From positions 1,992 through 65,991 of the forward strand of contig JBJMSU010000065.1 of assembly GCA_045801465.1 (NCBI GenBank): DNA of 64,000 nucleotides, read 5' to 3'. Positions 2,510 through 12,246 of the stretch are shown here, in pieces. The translations under genes were made by a program, and so were the position numbers. Numbering within the stretch: position 1 is the first letter of the stretch; every line of letters begins with the position of its first letter. The notes beneath the pieces were generated by a model. That model worked only from the letters and a program-made list of their open reading frames with translations, was not told the origin of the DNA and did no database searches. The stretch comes from Xanthobacteraceae bacterium. GTDB taxonomy: Bacteria > Pseudomonadota > Alphaproteobacteria > Rhizobiales > Xanthobacteraceae.

Positions 2510-2684
2510 CGGGCATTGCCTCGGTGCTGGTGCGGCGCGTGCATAGCTTGCGCGCGCCGCACGCATTTCCGGCGACAAATTGTTGAATTGCGCCGCCGCC
2601 ATTGGTGCTATACGCCAGACACGATTGGAAACGTGAAAACGGCACCGGATCAACGGCGCCGAGATCAATCGAAAGGGAGCGACA

Positions 2685-4649
2685 ATGGGACACGAGGAAA
2701 CCCACCCGAAGGTCAATCGACGCAAGTTCCTGGCCGGCGTTGCAGTGGCGGGCGCGGCCGCGCCCGGCATCGCCAATGCGGCCACTTCCGCGACATCGGC
2801 CACCAGTGCGCCGCGGCCTTCCGTGCTGCCGCCGTCAGCCGCCGTTGCGGCGGCAGAGACCGGCACCCCGCCGGCAATGCCGCATGCCAAGGGACCGGCC
2901 GGATCGGATTTCATGGTGGATGTCATCAAGACACTCGACATCCCCTACCTGCCGTCCAACCCGGCTTCAAGCTTCCGCGGCCTGCACGAGTCGCTGATCA
3001 ACTACGGCAACAACACCAAGCCCGAATTCCTCACCTGTCTGCATGAGGAATCCGCCGTCGGCATGTGCCACGGCTATTTCAAGGTGACCGGCAAGCCGTT
3101 GATGACGCTGTGCCACGGCACCGTGGGCCTGCAGCACGCCGCGATGGCGATCTACAACGCCTGGTGCGATCGCGTGCCGATGATCGTCGTCGGCGGCAAC
3201 GACCTCGATGCCGCCAAGCGTCCGCCCGGTGTGCCGACGTTCCATTCGGCGCAGGACATCAATGCGATGGTGCGCGACTTCACCAAATGGGACGACACGC
3301 CGGTGTCGCTGCAGCACTTCGCGCAATCGTTCGTTCGCGCCTACAAGATCGCCATGACGCCGCCCTATGGGCCGGTTGCGATCTCGCTCGATGCCGGCCT
3401 GCAGCAGGAGCCGGTCCACGAGAACAGCGAGCGCTTGTACATCCCGCGCCATGTGCCGACGGCGCCGCCGCAAGGCGACGCCAACGCGGTGCGCGAGGCG
3501 GCCCGTCTGCTCGCCAACGCGCAGAACCCGGTGATCGTCGTCGACCGTGCAGCCCGCAGCGAAAACGGCATCCGGCTCCTGGTGCAGTTGGCCGAGGCGC
3601 TGCAGGCGCCGGTGGTCGACCAGGGCGGCCGGATGAACTTCCCCAAGACTCATTATCTCGCGAGCGCACCGACGGTGGTCGGCCGCGCCGACGTGATCAT
3701 CGGCATGGAATTGTCCGATTATTGGGGCACGGTGAATGCGTGGATCGACAACGGCGGCGATGACGGCACCGGCTTGCGCGAGTCGCGCATCAAGCCCGAC
3801 ACCAAGCTGATCAGCATCAGCTCCGTCGACCTCAACACCAAGGCCAACTACCAGGACTTCCAGCGCTTCCAGACGATCGACGTGCAGATGGCCGGCGATG
3901 CCGAGGCGACGCTTCCGGCGTTGATCGACGCCGTCAAGGCTGCCATTCCCAACGACCGCAAGGCGGCGATCGAGAAGCGCGGCGAGGCGTTGAAGAAAGC
4001 GCGTGCCGAGGCGATGGAGCGCACCCGGGCCGCGGCGGCGGTCGCCTGGGACGCCAGCCCGATCAGCACGGCACGCCTGGTGATGGAGACCTACGCCGCG
4101 ATCAAGGACCTCGACTGGTCACTGGTCGCATCCTCCGGCAATGTCAGCAATTGGCCGAACCGGTTGTGGCCGATGGAGAAGCATTACCACTGGCTCGGCG
4201 CCTCGGGTGGTTACGGCGTCGGCTATGGCGCGCCAGCCTCGGTGGGCGCGGCGCTCGGCAACCGCGAGGTCGGGCGCTTCTCCGTCTCGATCCAGGCCGA
4301 CGGCGACCTGATGTATGCGCCGGGCGTGCTGTGGACTGCGGCGCACCACAACATTCCGCTGCTGGCGGTCATGCACAACAATCGCGGCTACCATCAGGAA
4401 GTCATGCACGTGCAGCGTCTGTCGAACCGGCGCAATCGTGTCGCCAGCCTCGGCAAGACCATGGGCCCGATCGGGACCTCGATCGAAGGGCCCGATATCG
4501 ACTACGCGAAAATGGCTGCGTCCATGGGATTGTGGTCGGCGGGTCCCATCAAGGACCCCGCCGAGCTCGCGCCGGCGCTGAAGCGCGCGGTCGCGGCGGT
4601 GAAATCCGGTCAGCCCGCGCTGATCGACGTGTGGACTCAGCCGCGGTGA
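2685..4649 (+). CDS. Thiamine-diphosphate-dependent enzyme (acetolactate synthase/benzoylformate decarboxylase superfamily) with an N-terminal twin-arginine (Tat) signal peptide
   Basis: The Tat motif NRRKFLAG has its RR codons at 2718-2723, followed by a hydrophobic stretch and IANA. The ThDP-binding motif is QADGDLMY...MHNNRGY. The central domain looks typical (NPVIVVDRAAR). AAGGGAG lies upstream of the ATG at 2685. Confidence 0.88.
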   Translation: MGHEETHPKVNRRKFLAGVAVAGAAAPGIANAATSATSATSAPRPSVLPPSAAVAAAETGTPPAMPHAKGPAGSDFMVDVIKTLDIPYLPSNPASSFRGLHESLINYGNNTKPEFLTCLHEESAVGMCHGYFKVTGKPLMTLCHGTVGLQHAAMAIYNAWCDRVPMIVVGGNDLDAAKRPPGVPTFHSAQDINAMVRDFTKWDDTPVSLQHFAQSFVRAYKIAMTPPYGPVAISLDAGLQQEPVHENSERLYIPRHVPTAPPQGDANAVREAARLLANAQNPVIVVDRAARSENGIRLLVQLAEALQAPVVDQGGRMNFPKTHYLASAPTVVGRADVIIGMELSDYWGTVNAWIDNGGDDGTGLRESRIKPDTKLISISSVDLNTKANYQDFQRFQTIDVQMAGDAEATLPALIDAVKAAIPNDRKAAIEKRGEALKKARAEAMERTRAAAAVAWDASPISTARLVMETYAAIKDLDWSLVASSGNVSNWPNRLWPMEKHYHWLGASGGYGVGYGAPASVGAALGNREVGRFSVSIQADGDLMYAPGVLWTAAHHNIPLLAVMHNNRGYHQEVMHVQRLSNRRNRVASLGKTMGPIGTSIEGPDIDYAKMAASMGLWSAGPIKDPAELAPALKRAVAAVKSGQPALIDVWTQPR

Positions 4650-4657
4650 GGCGCGTC

Positions 4658-5008
4658 ATGGTTCGTTTGCGTTTGCGCGTGGGGCTGGCGGCGCTCGCCG
4701 CCGGTCTCCTGTTCGCTCCGGGGACGGCTCTTGCCGCCTCCGCCGACAAAGGCAAGACCGCCTACGTCAAGTACGGCTGCTGGCAATGCCATGGTTTCCA
4801 GGGGCAGGGCGGTGTCGCCGGCCCGAAACTGGCGCCGGACACGATCCCGTCCGAGGCATTCGTGGCGTTCGTCCGCACCACCAATCGCGCCATGCCGCCG
4901 TACAGCGAGGCGGTGCTGCCCAACGAGGATCTCGCCGACATCCACGCTTATCTGCAGACCGTGGCCAAGCCGCCGGATCCGAAGAGCATCCCGCTGCTGA
5001 ATCAATAG
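4658..5008 (+). CDS. Class I c-type cytochrome, monohaem, with a Sec signal peptide
   Basis: The internal ATG at 4658 of ORF 4151..5008 lies 8 nt after the stop of the ThDP enzyme. The signal is MVRLRLRVGLAALAAGLLFAPGTALAAS. The haem motif CWQCH sits at 4778-4792, and a distal Met candidate is in NRAMPPY. Confidence 0.85.
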   Translation: MVRLRLRVGLAALAAGLLFAPGTALAASADKGKTAYVKYGCWQCHGFQGQGGVAGPKLAPDTIPSEAFVAFVRTTNRAMPPYSEAVLPNEDLADIHAYLQTVAKPPDPKSIPLLNQ

Positions 5009-5015
5009 TTTGGCA

Positions 5016-5171
5016 CGTAGGGTGGGTGTGAGGCGCGTCACGAGGCCTCGCGATTGCCTCGCAGTCCTGCGCGCCGAAACCCACCATTCCCCGTCCGGCC
5101 GTTGGTGGGTTTCGGCGCGCCACGCAGCGGTGCCATTGGCAGCCGTGCATGGCGCCTCAACGCACCCTACG
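5016..5171. repeat. Nested palindromic intergenic element (REP-like, family C) between convergent genes
   Basis: Outer arms are cgtagggtgggtgtgaggcgc (5016-5036) and gcgcctcaacgcaccctacg (5152-5171). An inner perfect 17-bp hairpin is gcgcgccgaaacccacc (5069-5085) / ggtgggtttcggcgcgc (5104-5120). Confidence 0.75.
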
Positions 5172-6177
5172 ATCTTTTGCTCAACCCCACGATCTCATCG
5201 AGCAGGGCCTGTGGCACGTCGAGTCCGTGCTCGGCCGCGGCGCGTCGCTGCTCGTAACGGCGCGCACCGGGGAGTCGCGCGCCGGGCTCCGCCTCGATGG
5301 TCGCCGCGAGACCTGCGAGACGGTCGGTCACCGTGGAACCGCCGAGCGCTTCGGGCGAAAGGGCGATGATGAGCTGGCCGGTTTCGGGCGGCGGCCCCTC
5401 CGTGTCGAAGAACGAGCTCGACTCGTAGGCGAAGCGGGCGCCGGTGAGACCACCTGCAAGAATCTCGACCATGAGCGCGAGCGCGGTTCCCTTGGCGTCG
5501 CCCATGGGGATCATCGTTCCCTGGATCGCGGCCTCGGGATCGGTGGTGGGACGCCCGTCGCGGTCGAGCGCCCATCCTTCCGGGATGGGCTCGCCTTTCT
5601 GCTTGGCGAGCAGCAGGCGGCCGCGCGGAATCTTGGAGAGCGACAGATCGATCACGATGGGGTCGCGTCCGCGCACCGGCCCCGCGAAGGCGATCGGATT
5701 GGTGCCGAACAACCCGCGCCGCGCGTTCCATGGCGCAATGCCGGGGGGCGTATTGGCGAACATCAACGCCGCAGTGCCCGCGCGCGCCAGGCGCTCGACA
5801 TGCAGGCCGGCAACGCCGCAGTGATTGGAGCGGTTGATGGCTGCGGCCGCAATGCCGTGCGCCCGGCAAAGCGGCGGCAGCCGCGCGATGGCGAGATCGA
5901 TCGCCGGGTAGGCGAAGCCGAGCGCCGCATCGATGACAAGCGCCGCCGGCGCCATCGAGGTGACCTGCGGCGCGGCAAGCCCGTCCACCTTGCCGCTCCG
6001 CGCCTGGCCCGCATAGGAGGGGACGCGCGAAAGGCCGTGGCTCTTGATGCCATCGGCCTCGGCGCCGACCAGCGCGGCTGCGACCGAACGCGCGTTCTCA
6101 GGCTTGGTGCGGTTCGCCGTGAGCGCCGCAACGACGAGGTCGCGCGCGGCGTCGAGGGAAATGGTCTTGGTGGACAT
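5167..6177 (-). CDS. Ldh2-family (malate/L-lactate/sulfolactate-type) 2-hydroxyacid dehydrogenase
   Basis: This is the C-terminal 336 codons of ORF 5167..6846, starting at MSTKTISLDAARDL (ATG at 6175-6177). Typical Ldh2 strings are GIKSHGLSRVPSY, NHCGVAGLHVE and GTNPIAFA. The upstream part of the ORF runs through a REP and antisense to the next gene. Confidence 0.88.
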   Translation of the reverse strand: MSTKTISLDAARDLVVAALTANRTKPENARSVAAALVGAEADGIKSHGLSRVPSYAGQARSGKVDGLAAPQVTSMAPAALVIDAALGFAYPAIDLAIARLPPLCRAHGIAAAAINRSNHCGVAGLHVERLARAGTAALMFANTPPGIAPWNARRGLFGTNPIAFAGPVRGRDPIVIDLSLSKIPRGRLLLAKQKGEPIPEGWALDRDGRPTTDPEAAIQGTMIPMGDAKGTALALMVEILAGGLTGARFAYESSSFFDTEGPPPETGQLIIALSPEALGGSTVTDRLAGLAATIEAEPGARLPGARRYEQRRAAAEHGLDVPQALLDEIVGLSKRS

Positions 6178-6198
6178 GATCGAGTTGATCGGATTGTT

Positions 6199-6290
6199 GT
6201 CGTTCCCGCGCAGGCGGGAACCCATGACCACCGGCAGCGCGAAAAAAGTACCGACTGTGGTTATGGGTCCCCGCCTGCGCGGGGACGACG
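6199..6290. repeat. Palindromic intergenic repeat, family A, copy 1
   Basis: The sequence is gtcgttcccgcgcaggcgggaacccatgaccac ... gtggttatgggtccccgcctgcgcggggacgac. It has the same architecture as the copies at 10078, 14695 and 19536. Confidence 0.85.
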
Positions 6291-6296
6291 AGACCG

Positions 6297-7472
6297 TTAC
6301 GCGCTGCGATAGAGCTTCGTCATCACGAACTCGCGGTGGCCGAGCGCTTCCGCGGCCGTGAGCCGCCCGTTGGCCGTGCGCACGACCATGTCGATCAGCG
6401 CGTCGCCGGCCTGGTCCAGCGTCATCTCGCGCCTCAGGATGCCGGACACGTCGAGATCGATGTGCTCCGACATGGTGCGCACCGTGCGCGGATTGCCGGT
6501 GATCTTGATCACCGGCACGATCGGGTTGCCGATCACGTTGCCCTGGCCGGTCGGGAACGTGTGCAGGACATAACCGGCCGCCGCCATGAGAGTGACGCAT
6601 TCGGCCGCCGCCGAGGACGTGTCCATATAGTAGAGACCCGGTCCCTTGGCCGGCGCCTCGGCGGGCGCGAGCACGTCGATATAGCGGCACGTGCGCCCGA
6701 TCTTCTCGAGATTGCCGAGCGCCTTCTCCTCGATCGTGGTGAGCCCGCCGGCGATGTTGCCCTTGGTCGGCTGCGACTCGGAGAGATCGTCGACCTTGTG
6801 GGCCTGAATTACCTCGTCCTCGTAGGCCTTCCACGTCCGGTACCACTTCTCGCCGATCTCCGGGCTCGCGGCCCGAGCCTTGGCGAGATGCTCGGCGCCG
6901 GTGATTTCCGACGTCTCGCCGAACACCCCATGGATGCCGTCCGGGATCAGCTTGTCATACATGTTGCCGACGGTCGGGCACGAAGCGAGCCCGGTTGTGG
7001 TGTCGGATTCGCCGCATTTGGTCGACACCCAGAGATCGGAGACGGGGCACTCCTCGCGCTGCAGCTCGGAAGCCCATTGCAGATAATCCTTGGCGGCGCG
7101 CGCCGCCTTGGCGATCGTCCCTAGGTCGCCGGTGCCCTCGATGCCGAAGCCGGTCACCGGCTTGCCGGTCTTGGCAATACCGTCGACCACGCGCTTGGTC
7201 CATCCGTCCTCGATCCCGACGACGACGACGGCCGCCACGTTGGGATTGGCGCCGGTGCCGATCAGGGTGCGGAAGAACAGATCGAGGTCCTCGCCGAACT
7301 GCAACCGCCCATAGGCGTGCGGCAGCGCCATCGTGCCCTTGATGTTGTGGGCGACCGCTTCGCTCGCCGCGTTGGAGAGATCGTCGAGGGGAAGAATCAC
7401 GACATGGTTGCGCACGCCTACGCGGCCGTTCTCGCGCCGCCACGCCGTCACGCTGCCGTTCCCATTCTTCAT
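6297..7472 (-). CDS. UxaA-family (altronate dehydratase C-terminal type) hydro-lyase large subunit; SuyB-like architecture
   Basis: The 391-aa ORF reads [31 protein letters not shown]...CGESDTTTG...[14 protein letters not shown]. It lacks the N-terminal SAF domain, which is encoded separately just upstream. Confidence 0.85.
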
Positions 7473-7482
7473 TGCGGTGGTC

Positions 7483-7830
7483 CTACCAGCGTTTGGTCTT
7501 CATATTGTGGACATGGACGTGCTCGCCGCGTCCGACCTTCTTGACGAAGCGGCCGATGTCCTGGCCATACTTGATCGCGGTGTCGCCTTCGGTGAAATCG
7601 GCAAGCGCGACCTTGTGGCCGATCGGGATGTCGTCCTTCACGACGATCGTGAAGGAGCTGTTGTCCGCGGTGACGACGCCGAAGGCGTCAGTGCCGGCCT
7701 TGAGACCTTCCACCACGACCACGGCGACGTTGTCTTTGGCGTCGTGGGCGAGAACATCCGGAACCCGGCTCTGCCCGGGCGCCGCGGCGGTTCCGGCCTT
7801 TGCGGAAGGGACATCGACGCGTTTGTTCAT
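7483..7830 (-). CDS. SAF-domain small subunit of the split UxaA-family lyase (SuyA-like architecture)
   Basis: The internal ATG at 7828-7830 gives MNKRVDV. The string [15 protein letters not shown]...[22 protein letters not shown] is typical of the SAF/UxaA N-terminus. It ends 10 nt upstream of the large subunit. Confidence 0.8.
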
Positions 7831-7902
7831 ACGAGATCTTGCCTCCCCCGTGCTGCGCATGACGTGATCTAGCACGTCTCGAGGCCGGCCGCAGCGGGAG
7901 GA

Positions 7903-8910
7903 TCAGTCGCCCTTGAGCCCGTGCACCTCGGGAAAGAACAGGTCCTGCCACGTCGCCGGCATGTTCTTCAGGGTGCCGACGCGATGCATGAAGCCATAGA
8001 TCTTCATCACGTTTTGCGGAGCGGGAGCGAAGGAGAATTCGGGGTCGACGATCAGCCTCTCGATGAAACCGATGGGCAGATTGGTTCTCTCAATCCGGGC
8101 GAAAATCTGCGCCGCCTCGCGCGGGTGTTCGGCAATGAAGGCATTCGCGTCCTGCAAGGCCGCCCAAACCGCCTGGTAGGTCTGCGGGTTCGCGTCGCGC
8201 CAGCGGCTCGTCAGCGCAACGGCGCTGAACGTGTTGGGGCCGTCGGTCGCATCGTACGAGCTTAAGAGCTTGCGGATCCCCGATTGTTCCAGCTGCTGAT
8301 ACTGGAACGGCGCTGACGTGAAATGCGCCGTGATCTCCAGCTTGCCCGAGAGGAATGCCGCAGTGCCGTCGGGATGGCTCATTGCCACGGTGAGCCTGTC
8401 GAGCACGTCGTGCTTGCCCGGGCCGAAGGTCCTTTCGGCGATCATCTGCAGCATGATGGCCTGCACCGACACCTTCGGTGCCGGCAAGGCGATGCGGTCG
8501 TTGTCGGTGAAATCGCGAACGGATTTGATATTCGGGTCGCGTGTGTTGAGGTAGGCCGGCTGGCGATTCAATGCCGCCATCGATTTGACATTCATGTTCC
8601 CACGCGTCTTGTCCCACATGGTCAGGAACGAGGGCAGTCCGACGCCGACCATATCGACACTGCCGGTCAGGAGAGCGTCGGTCAGCGCGGTCGGCGTGCC
8701 CAGGCCCGACCATTCGGTGGTGATCTTGCCCAGGCCAATCTCCAGCGCGCGCTTCTCGACGAAGCCCTTGTCCTGCAGGATGTAGAACTGCAGGTAGCCG
8801 AGGCCGAGCTGGCGCGCGAAACGGACATGGCTGACCTCCGCGCCGGCGCCGCCGCACAGGCCGAGAAAGGTGAATGCCGCTAACAGGGGCCTCAATCGCA
8901 CGCACTTCAT
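7903..8910 (-). CDS. ABC-type periplasmic substrate-binding protein, NMT1/THI5 (nitrate/sulfonate/taurine) family
   Basis: Start at MKCVRLRPLLAAFTFLGLCGGAGAEV (ATG at 8908-8910), which is a signal peptide. The upstream part of ORF 7903..9282 is AT-rich leader. No permease or ATPase gene is adjacent. Confidence 0.8.
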   Translation of the reverse strand: MKCVRLRPLLAAFTFLGLCGGAGAEVSHVRFARQLGLGYLQFYILQDKGFVEKRALEIGLGKITTEWSGLGTPTALTDALLTGSVDMVGVGLPSFLTMWDKTRGNMNVKSMAALNRQPAYLNTRDPNIKSVRDFTDNDRIALPAPKVSVQAIMLQMIAERTFGPGKHDVLDRLTVAMSHPDGTAAFLSGKLEITAHFTSAPFQYQQLEQSGIRKLLSSYDATDGPNTFSAVALTSRWRDANPQTYQAVWAALQDANAFIAEHPREAAQIFARIERTNLPIGFIERLIVDPEFSFAPAPQNVMKIYGFMHRVGTLKNMPATWQDLFFPEVHGLKGD

Positions 8911-9199
8911 CTCACGTTTTTTCCGATGTTCCACGAGCCGACGTGGCGAGACATTATCGTGCACACGCGCGGTCGAATAGCGCTCTTGGCGAAGGAGAAT
9001 TTTCGCTTTCCGGCTTGTCGTGTTGATGACAATAAATTTCTTTCTCGCGGTCGATCCCAGCCCAATTGTCCGGCAGCGGCACGAAACAGGACGCGCCAGG
9101 ATTGGCACTGCGCCCCCCGCTCCCCTATGATTGGCAAGGAACTGCACAGGAGCATACCGGCAGTTTTGCTTTCGTTTGCGAATGGCGGAGACGCAAAAC

Positions 9200-10072
9200 A
9201 TGTCTGTGAGCATAACGCCGTTGACGCCGGCGGTCGGTGCGGAAATCGCCGACCTCGATCTGCGCTCGCTGGATGACGCCACCTTTGCGGCGATCGAGCG
9301 AGCGTGGCACCGCTATTCGGTCCTGCTGTTCCGCAACCAGCAGCTCAGCGATGACGACCTGCTCGCCTTCAGCCGGCGCTTCGGCGAACTCGATCCACCG
9401 CCCAATCAGGAGCACGGCCGGCAAAGCCCGCCCGGCTATCCGGATATCTATGTGGTCTCCAACGTCCTCGACGAAAAAGGGCAGCCGATCGGCGCGCTCG
9501 GCGCCGGCGAGGCGGTCTGGCACACGGACATGAGCTATGCCGACCTGCCGCCGGATGCCTCGATGCTCTACGCCCTGGAGATTCCCCCCGCGGGTGGCAA
9601 TACCTATCTGTGCGGCATGCAGGCTGCCTGGGCGGCATTGCCGCCTGCACTGAAGCGGAAAATCGAAGGGCGCCGCATCAAGCACGACGGCACCTACAAC
9701 AGCGGCGGCTATGTCCGCAAAGGCGTGACGCCGACCGACGATCCGCACCAGGCGCCGGGCGCCTGGCATCCCGCGGTGTGCCGCCATCCGGTGACCGGCG
9801 TGCCGGGCCTCTATCTCGGCCGGCGCCGCAATTCCTATGTCGAGGGCTTCACGCCGGCGGAATCGGACGCGCTGCTGGACCAATTGTGGGAGGAGGCGAC
9901 CCGGCCCGAGTTCGTCTATCAGCACCGCTGGCAAGTCGGCGACCTGCTGTTGTGGGACAACCGCTCGACCCTGCACCGGCGCGATCCGTTCGACGCCGCC
10001 ACGCGGCGCGTCATGCATCGCACCCAGATCAAGGGCAAGTGGCCGCCGCGCGCCTATGTCAGCGCCGCTTGA
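9200..10072 (+). CDS. TauD/TfdA-family Fe(II)/2-oxoglutarate dioxygenase
   Basis: The translation reads MSVSITPLTPAVGAEIADLDLR...WHTDMSY...LWDNRSTLHRR. GGAG lies 10 nt upstream of the ATG at 9200. An alternative in-frame ATG is at 9182. Confidence 0.88.
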   Translation: MSVSITPLTPAVGAEIADLDLRSLDDATFAAIERAWHRYSVLLFRNQQLSDDDLLAFSRRFGELDPPPNQEHGRQSPPGYPDIYVVSNVLDEKGQPIGALGAGEAVWHTDMSYADLPPDASMLYALEIPPAGGNTYLCGMQAAWAALPPALKRKIEGRRIKHDGTYNSGGYVRKGVTPTDDPHQAPGAWHPAVCRHPVTGVPGLYLGRRRNSYVEGFTPAESDALLDQLWEEATRPEFVYQHRWQVGDLLLWDNRSTLHRRDPFDAATRRVMHRTQIKGKWPPRAYVSAA

Positions 10073-10198: not shown

Positions 10199-11104
10199 TC
10201 ACGCGGCTGAAAAGAACTTCTTCAGGTCCTCGCGTGCGCTTAAGCCCGCATCCAGCTGCCAGCAGTTGACGACGGCCAGGCGAAAGCCGCCGGGGGGCAT
10301 GGCGTGGTGGGCCGCGGCCCGGTCCTCGTGAAACGTGATCTGCACGCTCGAGATGCCGGGCCGGCGCAAGACGTCATTCACCAGGTCCTGCGGCGGGTGG
10401 CGATAGCGTGGTCCCTTGCGGCCGAACAAGACGACGCTGTAGCCGTCGCGACGGTCGCGGTCGTCGAAGTCCCAGACCCGCCGGCCATAGAGCCGTACCA
10501 ACGCGTCGACCCACCCGACGCCATAGAGGTCGGGCCATTGATCGCTCAGGCGCAGGTGCACCTCGATCATCGTTCCGCCGATGGTCTCGAGATTGAGCAT
10601 GCCGGTGTAGTTGGGCAGGTGACGGCGAATCCACGCGCCGCACCTCTCCTCGATCTTCTGCTCGCCCTCCGCGCGCACGGTCCAGAAATCGAACGTTCCA
10701 CCGCGTCCGGGTTCGCCGGTCACGTGTCGCCACCAGCAGGGCGCGCCTTTCACGACCGCGACGTCGGAGCTGACATGGCGGCCTTCCAGCAGCGGCATCC
10801 ACATGTGGCCGGCGCGATAGTGCCGCTCGTAGTCTTCCGCCGAGCGGATGACCCGGCTGCCGATGCCCATGCCCTTGAGGTTGACGATCGGTTTGGAAAA
10901 CACCGGAAAATGCGGCGGCGTCGTGCCGTGCGGGCCTGCCATCAGGCCTTGGCTGTGCGCGACCGCGATCTTGTCGTAGACCCAGCGCTCGTTCGGGTAC
11001 CACATCCATGCGTCGAAGTCTTCGGTGGGAATGTTGACGTGCGGCGGGCATTCGACGCGGCAGAAATATTGCAGCCGCCACGGATCGGCTTCACAGATCG
11101 GCAT
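10199..11104 (-). CDS. ATP-grasp-like ligase, function unknown
   Basis: The 301-aa ORF has ATP-grasp-like motifs: PVFSKPIVNLKGMGIGSRVI, MWMPLLEGRHVSSDVAVVKG and MLNLETIGGTMIEVHLRLS. It has ordinary amino-acid composition and is co-directional with egtBD. Confidence 0.65.
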   Translation of the reverse strand: MPICEADPWRLQYFCRVECPPHVNIPTEDFDAWMWYPNERWVYDKIAVAHSQGLMAGPHGTTPPHFPVFSKPIVNLKGMGIGSRVIRSAEDYERHYRAGHMWMPLLEGRHVSSDVAVVKGAPCWWRHVTGEPGRGGTFDFWTVRAEGEQKIEERCGAWIRRHLPNYTGMLNLETIGGTMIEVHLRLSDQWPDLYGVGWVDALVRLYGRRVWDFDDRDRRDGYSVVLFGRKGPRYRHPPQDLVNDVLRRPGISSVQITFHEDRAAAHHAMPPGGFRLAVVNCWQLDAGLSAREDLKKFFSAA

Positions 11105-11250: not shown

Positions 11251-12246
11251 CTATGTGTCGCGCTGCGGCCGGGACATGGGCTCGTTCACGAGAAAATAGA
11301 CCGCAAAATATTGGTTGGCATCGGTCCACAGCGCCTGCACGCTCCAGCCGGAGCCGCGGGCCAGCGCGCTGAACGAGGCGGGCGTGTACTTGTAGCTGTT
11401 CTCGGTGTGGATCGTCTCGCCGGCGCGGAATTCGATCGTCTCGCCCAAAACCTTCACCTTCTGGCGCTTGATGCTGGCGAGATGCATCTCGATGCGCGAG
11501 CGCTCGCGATTGAAGAAGGCGTGGTGCTCGAAACATTTGAGATTGAAATTGGCGCCCAGCTCGCGATTGATCCGGGCCAGCAGATTGAGATTGAACTTTG
11601 CCGTCACGCCGGCCGCATCGTTGTAGGCGGCGTGGAGGACGGCGCGGTCCTTGACGAGATCGACGCCGATGATGAATGCCGCGCCGCGCCCGAGAATACG
11701 GCCGGCATTACGCAGGAACGTGCAGGCCTCGTGCGGCTCGAAATTGCCGATGGTCGAGCCGGGGAAGAATCCGGCCCGCGGTAGGCTCGCCAGCTCGGCC
11801 GGCACCTCGAACGGCTGGCAGAAATCGGCATCGACCGGGATAACGGCAAGCCTCGGGAAGCTGCGCCGCAGAACGTCGGCTTCGTGGTGGAGGACTTCCG
11901 ACGAGATGTCCACCGGGATGTAAGCGGCAAGCTGCGGCGCGGCGCCGAGCAGGATCGATGCCTTGGTGCTCGCGCCGCTTCCGAACTCGACCAGCGCGGC
12001 TTGGTCCGGCAGCCGCCCGGCCATGTCGGCCGCGTGCTCGCGGAGAATGCCGAGCTCGGTGCGAGTCGGATAATATTCCGGCAGTTGGCTGATGCGCTCG
12101 AACAGCCGCGAGCCGGCGCTGTCGTAGAAATACTTTGCCGGCAGCGTCTTGCGCTCCGCTTGCAATCCGGCAAGGACGTCGGCGGCGAAAGCGGCGGTAG
12201 CCTTTGATGGTTCGACAAGGGGTGCAACGCGGGCAAGGGCGGGCAT
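11251..12246 (-). CDS. egtD: L-histidine N-alpha-methyltransferase (ergothioneine biosynthesis)
   Basis: Motifs are KYFYDSAGSRLFERISQLPEYYPTRTE, LVEFGSGASTKASILL and ETIHTENSYKY. It starts 9 nt after the egtB stop. Confidence 0.9.
   Translation of the reverse strand: MPALARVAPLVEPSKATAAFAADVLAGLQAERKTLPAKYFYDSAGSRLFERISQLPEYYPTRTELGILREHAADMAGRLPDQAALVEFGSGASTKASILLGAAPQLAAYIPVDISSEVLHHEADVLRRSFPRLAVIPVDADFCQPFEVPAELASLPRAGFFPGSTIGNFEPHEACTFLRNAGRILGRGAAFIIGVDLVKDRAVLHAAYNDAAGVTAKFNLNLLARINRELGANFNLKCFEHHAFFNRERSRIEMHLASIKRQKVKVLGETIEFRAGETIHTENSYKYTPASFSALARGSGWSVQALWTDANQYFAVYFLVNEPMSRPQRDT

Follow-up and report, generated by a model that had tools for sequence, protein, structure and literature searches.

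Enzymes that depend on thiamine diphosphate (ThDP) are, to our knowledge, regarded as cytoplasmic or organellar, and we know of no review of twin-arginine translocation (Tat) substrates that includes ThDP among the exported cofactors. Within the ThDP superfamily, the closest functional analogue of the system described here is PoxB, the pyruvate:quinone oxidoreductase (EC 1.2.5.1). In PoxB and pyruvate oxidase the ThDP enamine is oxidised by a flavin, acetyl-ThDP is hydrolysed and the respiratory chain is fed. Oxidation of a ThDP intermediate is also carried out by the flavin-free 2-oxoacid:ferredoxin oxidoreductases, such as PFOR and oxalate oxidoreductase, in which electrons pass one at a time to iron-sulfur (Fe-S) clusters. 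On the side of the periplasm, NicA2 is a Tat-exported dehydrogenase with an adjacent, dedicated cytochrome c, CycN. The same logic, in which a cofactor-loaded dehydrogenase of the periplasm has a small class I cytochrome c encoded beside it, is seen in p-cresol methylhydroxylase, a flavocytochrome c, and in the pyrroloquinoline quinone (PQQ) alcohol dehydrogenase with its cytochrome c550. Here we describe a two-gene locus in which a ThDP enzyme with a predicted Tat signal is encoded directly upstream of a c-type cytochrome. The locus lies in a stretch of 64,000 nt from a Xanthobacteraceae bacterium (assembly GCA_045801465.1, contig JBJMSU010000065.1), which was analysed as a whole and is referred to as the window.

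The components of this locus, namely the ThDP fold, Tat export and a dedicated cytochrome c, are all known, and it is their combination that is new; there is a substantial chance that it represents a new enzyme class. The chemistry proposed for it corresponds to that of PoxB with cytochrome c replacing the quinone. PoxB differs, however, in being a cytoplasmic peripheral membrane protein with flavin adenine dinucleotide (FAD) as its internal and ubiquinone as its external acceptor, and no flavin site or signature was recognised by sequence in the Tat family. PFOR provides a precedent for flavin-free oxidation, but it belongs to another ThDP fold family, contains [4Fe-4S] clusters, is cytoplasmic and uses ferredoxin as acceptor; the Pfam domain POR_N scored below threshold in the window ThDP enzyme (23.3 bits, cutoff 27). 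NicA2, p-cresol methylhydroxylase and PQQ alcohol dehydrogenase share the pairing with a small cytochrome, but they use a flavin or PQQ, and none of them uses ThDP. The window cytochrome weakly matched the cytochrome subunit of p-cresol methylhydroxylase (1DII_C, E value 0.0045) and the c550 protein PedF (17.8 bits), and it reached no family cutoff of these dehydrogenase-linked cytochromes. As for the crossing of a membrane, the ThDP enzyme 2-hydroxyacyl-CoA lyase enters peroxisomes in a cofactor-coupled manner and likewise crosses the membrane folded and with cofactor bound (PMC7463629). That enzyme is eukaryotic, however, depends on the import apparatus of peroxisomes and catalyses a lyase reaction without a redox partner. 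A full-text literature search, which covered journals incompletely, retrieved neither a ThDP enzyme described as periplasmic or Tat-exported nor one described as using cytochrome c. This outcome agrees with the first-pass annotation, which had been made from the sequence of the window and knew of no characterised system of this type. A mention of thiamine in one survey of Tat substrates concerned a different protein.

The twin arginines of the window ThDP enzyme are R12 and R13 (codons 2718-2723), located within VNRRKFLAGVAVAGAAAPGIANA/AT, and the isolated N-terminus scored 19.6 bits against the TAT_signal_seq model TIGR01409, exceeding the curated cutoff of 16.7. Conservation of the signal was analysed in a set of 161 loci, consisting of the window, 80 loci from species-representative genomes (66-88% identical) and 80 metagenome loci (49-68% identical to the window protein); the genome loci belong to Xanthobacteraceae, other Hyphomicrobiales, Burkholderiales and Steroidobacteraceae. 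A scripted test that required RRxFL plus a hydrophobic stretch, in frame and ahead of the catalytic core, was passed by 154 of the 161 loci. The signals follow the consensus (V/L)(D/N)RR(K/N)FL(K/A)G(A/V)A, and 141 loci have an AxA site after it. At the RR positions, each of the six arginine codons is in use across the loci, which indicates that selection acts on the protein. The seven exceptions were explained by assembly frameshifts in the linker, by contigs cut at this point or by long upstream open reading frames (ORFs) that misled the script. A start codon 3′ of the arginine pair in the orthologues, which had been named as a refutation, is thus not what the loci display, the exceptions being technical. 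In three metagenome-assembled sequences (L040, L043 and L109), the Tat signal and the enzyme core were found in different reading frames. The GC-rich Ala/Pro linker appears to be prone to assembly indels, so that gene callers start at MVDV... and hide the signal. Precomputed matches to the Pfam family TAT_signal (PF10518) exist on some of the homologues. With signal sequences of this kind, export of the ThDP enzyme through the Tat pathway is very probable.

The window cytochrome was matched by Cytochrome_CBB3 (48.1 bits, cutoff 27) and, also above the cutoff, by Cytochrom_C in Pfam, and it has the CxxCH motif, the distal Met and the signal peptide of a class I c-type cytochrome. Loci with at least 420 nt of sequence downstream of the ThDP gene were considered testable for its co-conservation. 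The cytochrome gene was located directly downstream on the same strand in 76 of the 78 testable genome loci and in 58 of the 70 testable metagenome loci. It was nearby, that is, on the opposite strand or within 2.5 kb, in four further metagenome loci and in no genome locus, and it was not found in two genome and eight metagenome loci. In the case of L064, one of the two exceptions among the genomes, the ThDP gene is present twice in the genome, and the other copy (L058) has the cytochrome. Lack of co-conservation of the cytochrome gene, also named as a refutation, is likewise not what the loci display. The gap between the two genes is mostly -4 to +15 nt, indicating translational coupling. The pair was found in alpha-, beta- and gammaproteobacterial genomes, and also in P0130, the most distant signal-bearing representative examined (43% identical). 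Among cultured bacteria it occurs in Burkholderia cenocepacia, Paraburkholderia acidicola and Rhodoplanes sp., with a dihaem partner in the first two. The arrangement is not due to chance, as more than 130 independent loci repeat both the signal and the pairing of the genes.

Alignment of 132 monohaem partners revealed conservation of GCxxCHG, MPPY, LADIxAYL and the IPLLNQ tail, and by their sequences these partners are a cytochrome subfamily of their own. The tail, (P)PDxKxIPLLNQ, is situated at the extreme C-terminus and is retained in Xanthobacteraceae and as far out as the most distant members from metagenomes, the dihaem partners included; the cytochrome may use it as a peptide to dock onto the ThDP enzyme. 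Taken together, the conserved pairing suggests that the ThDP enzyme and the cytochrome are likely functional partners. A different arrangement was observed in one metagenome locus (L085, 122-4900), where the ThDP gene has no downstream cytochrome of its own and a cytochrome c homologue lies on the opposite strand. There the neighbours of the ThDP gene are a large ORF of 625 amino acids, similar to a flavoprotein dehydrogenase, and a gene for a small subunit that bears a Tat-type signal; by eye, the three look like a gluconate-2-dehydrogenase-type cluster. The coordinates of the features of the window locus are collected in Table 1; those that the first-pass annotation had given for the ThDP gene, the RR codons, the cytochrome and the CWQCH motif all agree with the sequence.

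Table 1. Features of the ThDP enzyme-cytochrome c locus (positions in the window).
Feature	Coordinates	Strand	Remarks
Ribosome-binding site AGGGAG	2673-2678	+	6 nt 5′ of the ThDP gene ATG; read from the sequence
ThDP enzyme gene	2685-4649	+	654 amino acids; ATG start; stop codon 4647-4649; from the ORF list
Tat signal peptide, residues 1-32, MGHEETHPKVNRRKFLAGVAVAGAAAPGIANA	2685-2780	+	Weakly hydrophobic, Gly/Ala-rich region FLAGVAVAGAAAPGIA; predicted cleavage ANA/A
Linker / N-terminal arm, residues 33-72	2781-2900	+	Ala-, Ser- and Pro-rich; between signal and core
LPP...AAE motif, L48-E58	2826-2858	+	Conserved inside the N-terminal arm of the ThDP enzyme
Glu121 codon	3045-3047	+	Within invariant H120-E121-E122; aligned to the glutamate of benzoylformate decarboxylase (...LQE...)
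ThDP-Mg2+ motif, D539-G540-D541...N565-N566	4299-4382	+	Aligned to GDGS...NN of benzoylformate decarboxylase
Cytochrome c gene	4658-5008	+	116 amino acids; monohaem, class I; ATG 8 nt after the stop of the ThDP gene
Sec-type signal of the cytochrome, residues 1-26, MVRLRLRVGLAALAAGLLFAPGTALA/AS	4658-4735	+	Read by eye
Haem motif CWQCH, residues 41-45	4778-4792	+	In the cytochrome c gene
Met79 of MPPY, distal Met ligand	4892-4894	+	In the cytochrome c gene
C-terminal tail IPLLNQ	4988-5005	+	In the cytochrome c gene; conserved among the partners
Inverted repeat, perfect 18 bp with 16-nt loop (GCGCGCCGAAACCCACCA / TGGTGGGTTTCGGCGCGC)	5069-5120		Between the converging cytochrome and minus-strand Ldh_2-family genes

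The distribution of the signal among relatives of the enzyme was revealed by an exhaustive HMMER search over representatives clustered at 50% identity. All full-length matches of at least 43% identity begin with a Tat signal, and those of 33-41% identity start straight at the core (...YGSDLIVD...), at about residue 70, without a signal peptide. When 85 full-length sequences were placed in a neighbour-joining tree, every signal-bearing protein fell into one clade of 27, with the 58 signal-less proteins outside, so that the Tat-bearing clade that had been predicted does exist. Clade members that failed the strict filter either have a motif that is visible on inspection or are truncated gene calls, and one of them has RKKFL. 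Proteins of the sister clade are 33-41% identical over the whole core, and the clade contains nothing equivalent to the N-terminal arm and its LPP...AAE motif. Relatives are encoded at no fewer than 588 of the 600 pattern matches among species-representative genomes, and by thousands of metagenome proteins. The family is frequent in soil and freshwater Xanthobacteraceae, Burkholderiales and their relatives, and public annotations name its members 'acetolactate synthase large subunit' or 'thiamine pyrophosphate-binding protein'.

Analysis of the protein itself showed that all three Pfam domains of the superfamily exceed their cutoffs in the window ThDP enzyme (TPP_enzyme_N, 60.0 bits; TPP_enzyme_M, 42.2 bits; TPP_enzyme_C, 82.2 bits), giving a complete three-domain architecture of Pyr, middle and PP domains. 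The fold was therefore as complete as had been described in the first-pass annotation; the literal GDG...NN motif reported along with it was not found, the sequence reading A-D539-G540-D541...N565-N566. In an alignment of 62 family sequences, which was used to judge the invariance of residues (A2), D539, G540, N565 and N566 are invariant, and the first Gly of the canonical GDG-X(24-27)-NN is replaced by Ala in the window enzyme. The same alignment showed that E121, the glutamate expected in the Pyr domain, is invariant; its counterpart in benzoylformate decarboxylase (BFD) is Glu47, the glutamate that activates the cofactor. At the level of sequence, the ThDP site with E121, D539/G540 and N565/N566 is thus intact. 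E58 of the N-terminal arm is near-invariant, and many further His, Arg and Trp residues are invariant. The AlphaFold2 model of the ThDP enzyme had a mean predicted local distance difference test score (pLDDT) of 81.9 and a predicted TM-score (pTM) of 0.82. Residues 1-49 are disordered in the model, as expected of a signal peptide and linker, and the arm, with pLDDT values of 54-61, forms a short helix at residues 52-59. The middle domain is confidently folded.

Comparison with curated families placed the enzyme far from any named group. No curated NCBIfam cutoff was reached by the window protein, by other members of the clade or by the sister clade. The best-scoring curated model was PRK08327, 'thiamine pyrophosphate-requiring protein' (210.7 bits, cutoff 456), whose name assigns no function; other members of the Tat clade scored 209-235 bits, and both the Tat clade and the sister clade stay under its cutoff. 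The model of benzoylformate decarboxylase, NF005485, gave 172.6 bits against a cutoff of 493. Among solved structures, BFD (PDB 4Q9D and 1BFD) was the nearest by sequence, with E values of 1e-28 for the single sequence and 3e-41 for the family profile. A Foldseek search with the model yielded only members of the ThDP decarboxylase superfamily, at 17-21% identity and with roughly equal E values near 1e-33, including HKA synthase, BFD, benzaldehyde lyase, 2-hydroxyacyl-CoA lyase, acetolactate synthase, glyoxylate carboligase and cyclohexane-1,2-dione hydrolase; for BFD, benzaldehyde lyase and 2-hydroxyacyl-CoA lyase, target-normalised TM-scores were up to about 0.84. As no cutoff is reached and the solved structures are distant, the family is a deep, unnamed branch of the superfamily without a solved or characterised member. 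BFD, benzaldehyde lyase and 2-hydroxyacyl-CoA lyase share with it the three-domain fold, the catalytic glutamate and the Mg2+-ThDP motif, but they are only 18-20% identical, cytoplasmic and non-oxidative, and have neither a signal peptide nor a cytochrome partner. Relative to this group, the mature part of the Tat family is about 55 residues longer and carries the additional N-terminal arm. The motifs NNxGYxxE and GxxLSDY may be pyruvate-decarboxylase-like. A special kinship with pyruvate decarboxylase found no support in a local PDB search with the segment that holds the motifs, which ranked BFD first and listed no pyruvate decarboxylase.

These observations led us to propose that the gene pair is a self-contained operon encoding a ThDP dehydrogenase of the periplasm, and we consider this whole oxidative scheme somewhat better supported than not. 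In this scheme, the ThDP enzyme would fold in the cytoplasm, bind ThDP and Mg2+ and assemble into a dimer or tetramer. Assembly would take place there, and hence call for Tat, because the active sites of the fold lie between subunits. The assembled holoenzyme would then be exported whole, which would bring the cofactor into a compartment that has no ThDP supply, whereas the cytochrome c would be exported unfolded by Sec and receive its haem in the periplasm. The ylide of the periplasmic ThDP would attack a 2-oxo acid, an aldehyde or a 1,2-dicarbonyl, and loss of CO2 would give the hydroxyalkyl-ThDP enamine. Rather than being protonated and leaving as an aldehyde, the enamine would give up two electrons one after the other, and the partner haem would be their final acceptor. 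The acyl-ThDP would be hydrolysed to a carboxylic acid, and the reduced cytochrome c would deliver its electrons to a terminal oxidase. From the pairing we infer oxidative chemistry with electron transfer to the cytochrome, perhaps by way of a flavin or a relay of aromatic residues. That the family is the first periplasmic ThDP family and the founder of a class of 2-oxoacid (or aldehyde):cytochrome c oxidoreductases, in which the enamine is oxidised with neither flavin nor Fe-S cluster, is a more tentative proposal, which we regard as possible and somewhat doubtful.

If this proposal is true, electrons pass straight from the enamine to a dedicated cytochrome c and on to the aerobic respiratory chain, ThDP joins the cofactors carried by Tat, and carbon-carbon bond chemistry is added to the bacterial periplasm. 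With the cytochrome as acceptor, the pair would constitute a new entry point to respiration, comparable to the periplasmic dehydrogenases that use PQQ and flavin, as well as a new mode of enamine oxidation. Since the family is common in taxa of soil and freshwater, an unrecognised extracytoplasmic oxidation of organic acids could matter for the turnover of soil carbon. The cultured carriers, B. cenocepacia, P. acidicola and Rhodoplanes, make the gene pair directly testable.

Several results weigh against a dehydrogenase. No redox cofactor besides the haem of the partner was identifiable by sequence, and the pyruvate oxidase model NF006377 scored only 82 bits against a cutoff of 742. The solved enzymes that are closest by sequence and fold (BFD, benzaldehyde lyase and 2-hydroxyacyl-CoA lyase) are non-oxidative. 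Glu572, just after the NN motif, is invariant; it resembles in position the glutamate by which pyruvate decarboxylases protonate the enamine, which would favour plain decarboxylation. In this fold, ThDP is deep at the subunit interface, so direct transfer to an external haem would need a relay. There are also the loci with room for an adjacent cytochrome gene and none in it (8 of 70 metagenome and 2 of 78 genome loci), and the gene contexts differ among B. cenocepacia, P. acidicola, Rhodoplanes and P0130 and offer no substrate clue. Part of this evidence fits a Tat-exported but non-redox decarboxylase, lyase or carboligase of the periplasm, with a cytochrome that serves another step or is merely co-regulated; it might, for example, re-oxidise a separate dehydrogenase that handles the aldehyde product. 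Such an enzyme would agree with its closest solved relatives, HKA synthase among them, all of which are non-oxidative, with the failure to recognise a flavin-binding signature and with the lack of an adjacent cytochrome gene at about 10% of the testable loci. We nevertheless judge it rather unlikely, given that the cytochrome gene, at gaps of -4 to +15 nt, is coupled in translation to the ThDP gene, that the pairing persists down to 43% identity of the ThDP enzyme with a cytochrome subfamily that has its own tail, and that neither an aldehyde dehydrogenase nor any other third gene is conserved nearby.

An enzyme similar to PoxB, in which FAD in the middle domain relays electrons from ThDP to the cytochrome as in a flavocytochrome-type dehydrogenase, is improbable as well. 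A middle domain is present and confidently folded in the model, FAD-binding members of the superfamily (glyoxylate carboligase, acetohydroxyacid synthase and cyclohexane-1,2-dione hydrolase) fit the model no less well than those without a flavin, Tat export would suit a protein with two bound cofactors, and the HEE around the catalytic glutamate is found in pyruvate oxidases too. The highest sequence similarity is nonetheless to FAD-free enzymes, and a conserved Asp287-Arg288 (VIVVDRAA in A2) follows the first strand of the middle domain, at the place of the glycine-rich turn of FAD- and ADP-binding members, which may speak against a flavin. By far the least probable account is that the enzyme is cytoplasmic, started at Met65 or Met77 or carrying a relic signal or membrane tether, and that the cytochrome is a mere neighbour. 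Met65 and Met77 are in frame and usable as alternative starts, and some homologues have been called from MVDV...; but RRxFL, the hydrophobic region and AxA are kept at the protein level while flanking residues vary, the ribosome-binding site AGGGAG precedes the ATG at 2685, and frameshifts or contig ends account for the truncated homologues. Moreover, the relatives that are truly cytoplasmic do without the entire 70-residue extension, which they have lost or never had.

The periplasmic dehydrogenase that we favour would require no further gene at its locus. Clustering of ORFs, over 80 and then 160 loci, identified no third gene conserved with the pair, and the pair therefore looks functionally sufficient. 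An apparent cluster of ORFs from 41 loci proved to consist of ORFs antisense to the Ala-rich signal region and was discarded. The only recurring neighbour, a binding protein of the TctC/Bug type, was present at variable positions in 24 of 160 loci and was treated as background. In the window, the inverted repeat downstream of the cytochrome gene probably forms a hairpin that ends the two-gene operon, a terminator role that we ascribe to it although it has no T tract; scans of the locus with consensus promoters and terminators gave no match, this repeat included.

On chemical grounds only, pyruvate, glyoxylate, oxalate, 2-ketogluconate and arylglyoxylates are candidate substrates. Sulfoacetaldehyde, which had been suggested earlier, found no support, as the Xsc models gave 115.8 bits (TIGR03457) and 120.1 bits (NF005713) against cutoffs of 676 and 620, respectively. 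In B. cenocepacia (L161, 6867-14518), a run of genes on the same strand encodes a LysR regulator, the ThDP enzyme, the dihaem cytochrome c and an NMT1-type binding protein, and continues with DUF485, an SSF (ActP-like) carboxylate symporter and an Amdase-family protein. An acid product could be taken up through this symporter, but the arrangement is not conserved at other loci.

Further genes were observed around the pair in the window. A cluster resembling organosulfonate metabolism occupies 5167-8949 on the minus strand and 9131-10072 on the plus strand. It comprises an Ldh_2-family dehydrogenase, whose best match was L-sulfolactate dehydrogenase (182 bits, cutoff 500), and a UxaA-type dehydratase in two pieces, a large subunit and a small N-terminal one, for which the N-terminal part of galactarate dehydratase was the best match. 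A TauD-family dioxygenase and an SsuA-like binding protein are also encoded there, and none of these proteins reaches a curated cutoff. The cluster was dropped as a guide to the function of the pair, being on the other strand, below cutoffs and not conserved with it. Upstream of the pair, 62-2509 encodes a protein of 815 amino acids with a C-terminal S8 subtilase domain and a Gly-rich, repetitive N-terminal half with a GLUG motif. On the far side, an ORF of 301 amino acids without a match to a Pfam or NCBIfam family (10199-11104) adjoins the gene at 11251-12246 on the minus strand, which encodes EgtD, the L-histidine N-alpha-methyltransferase of ergothioneine synthesis (401 bits, cutoff 291).

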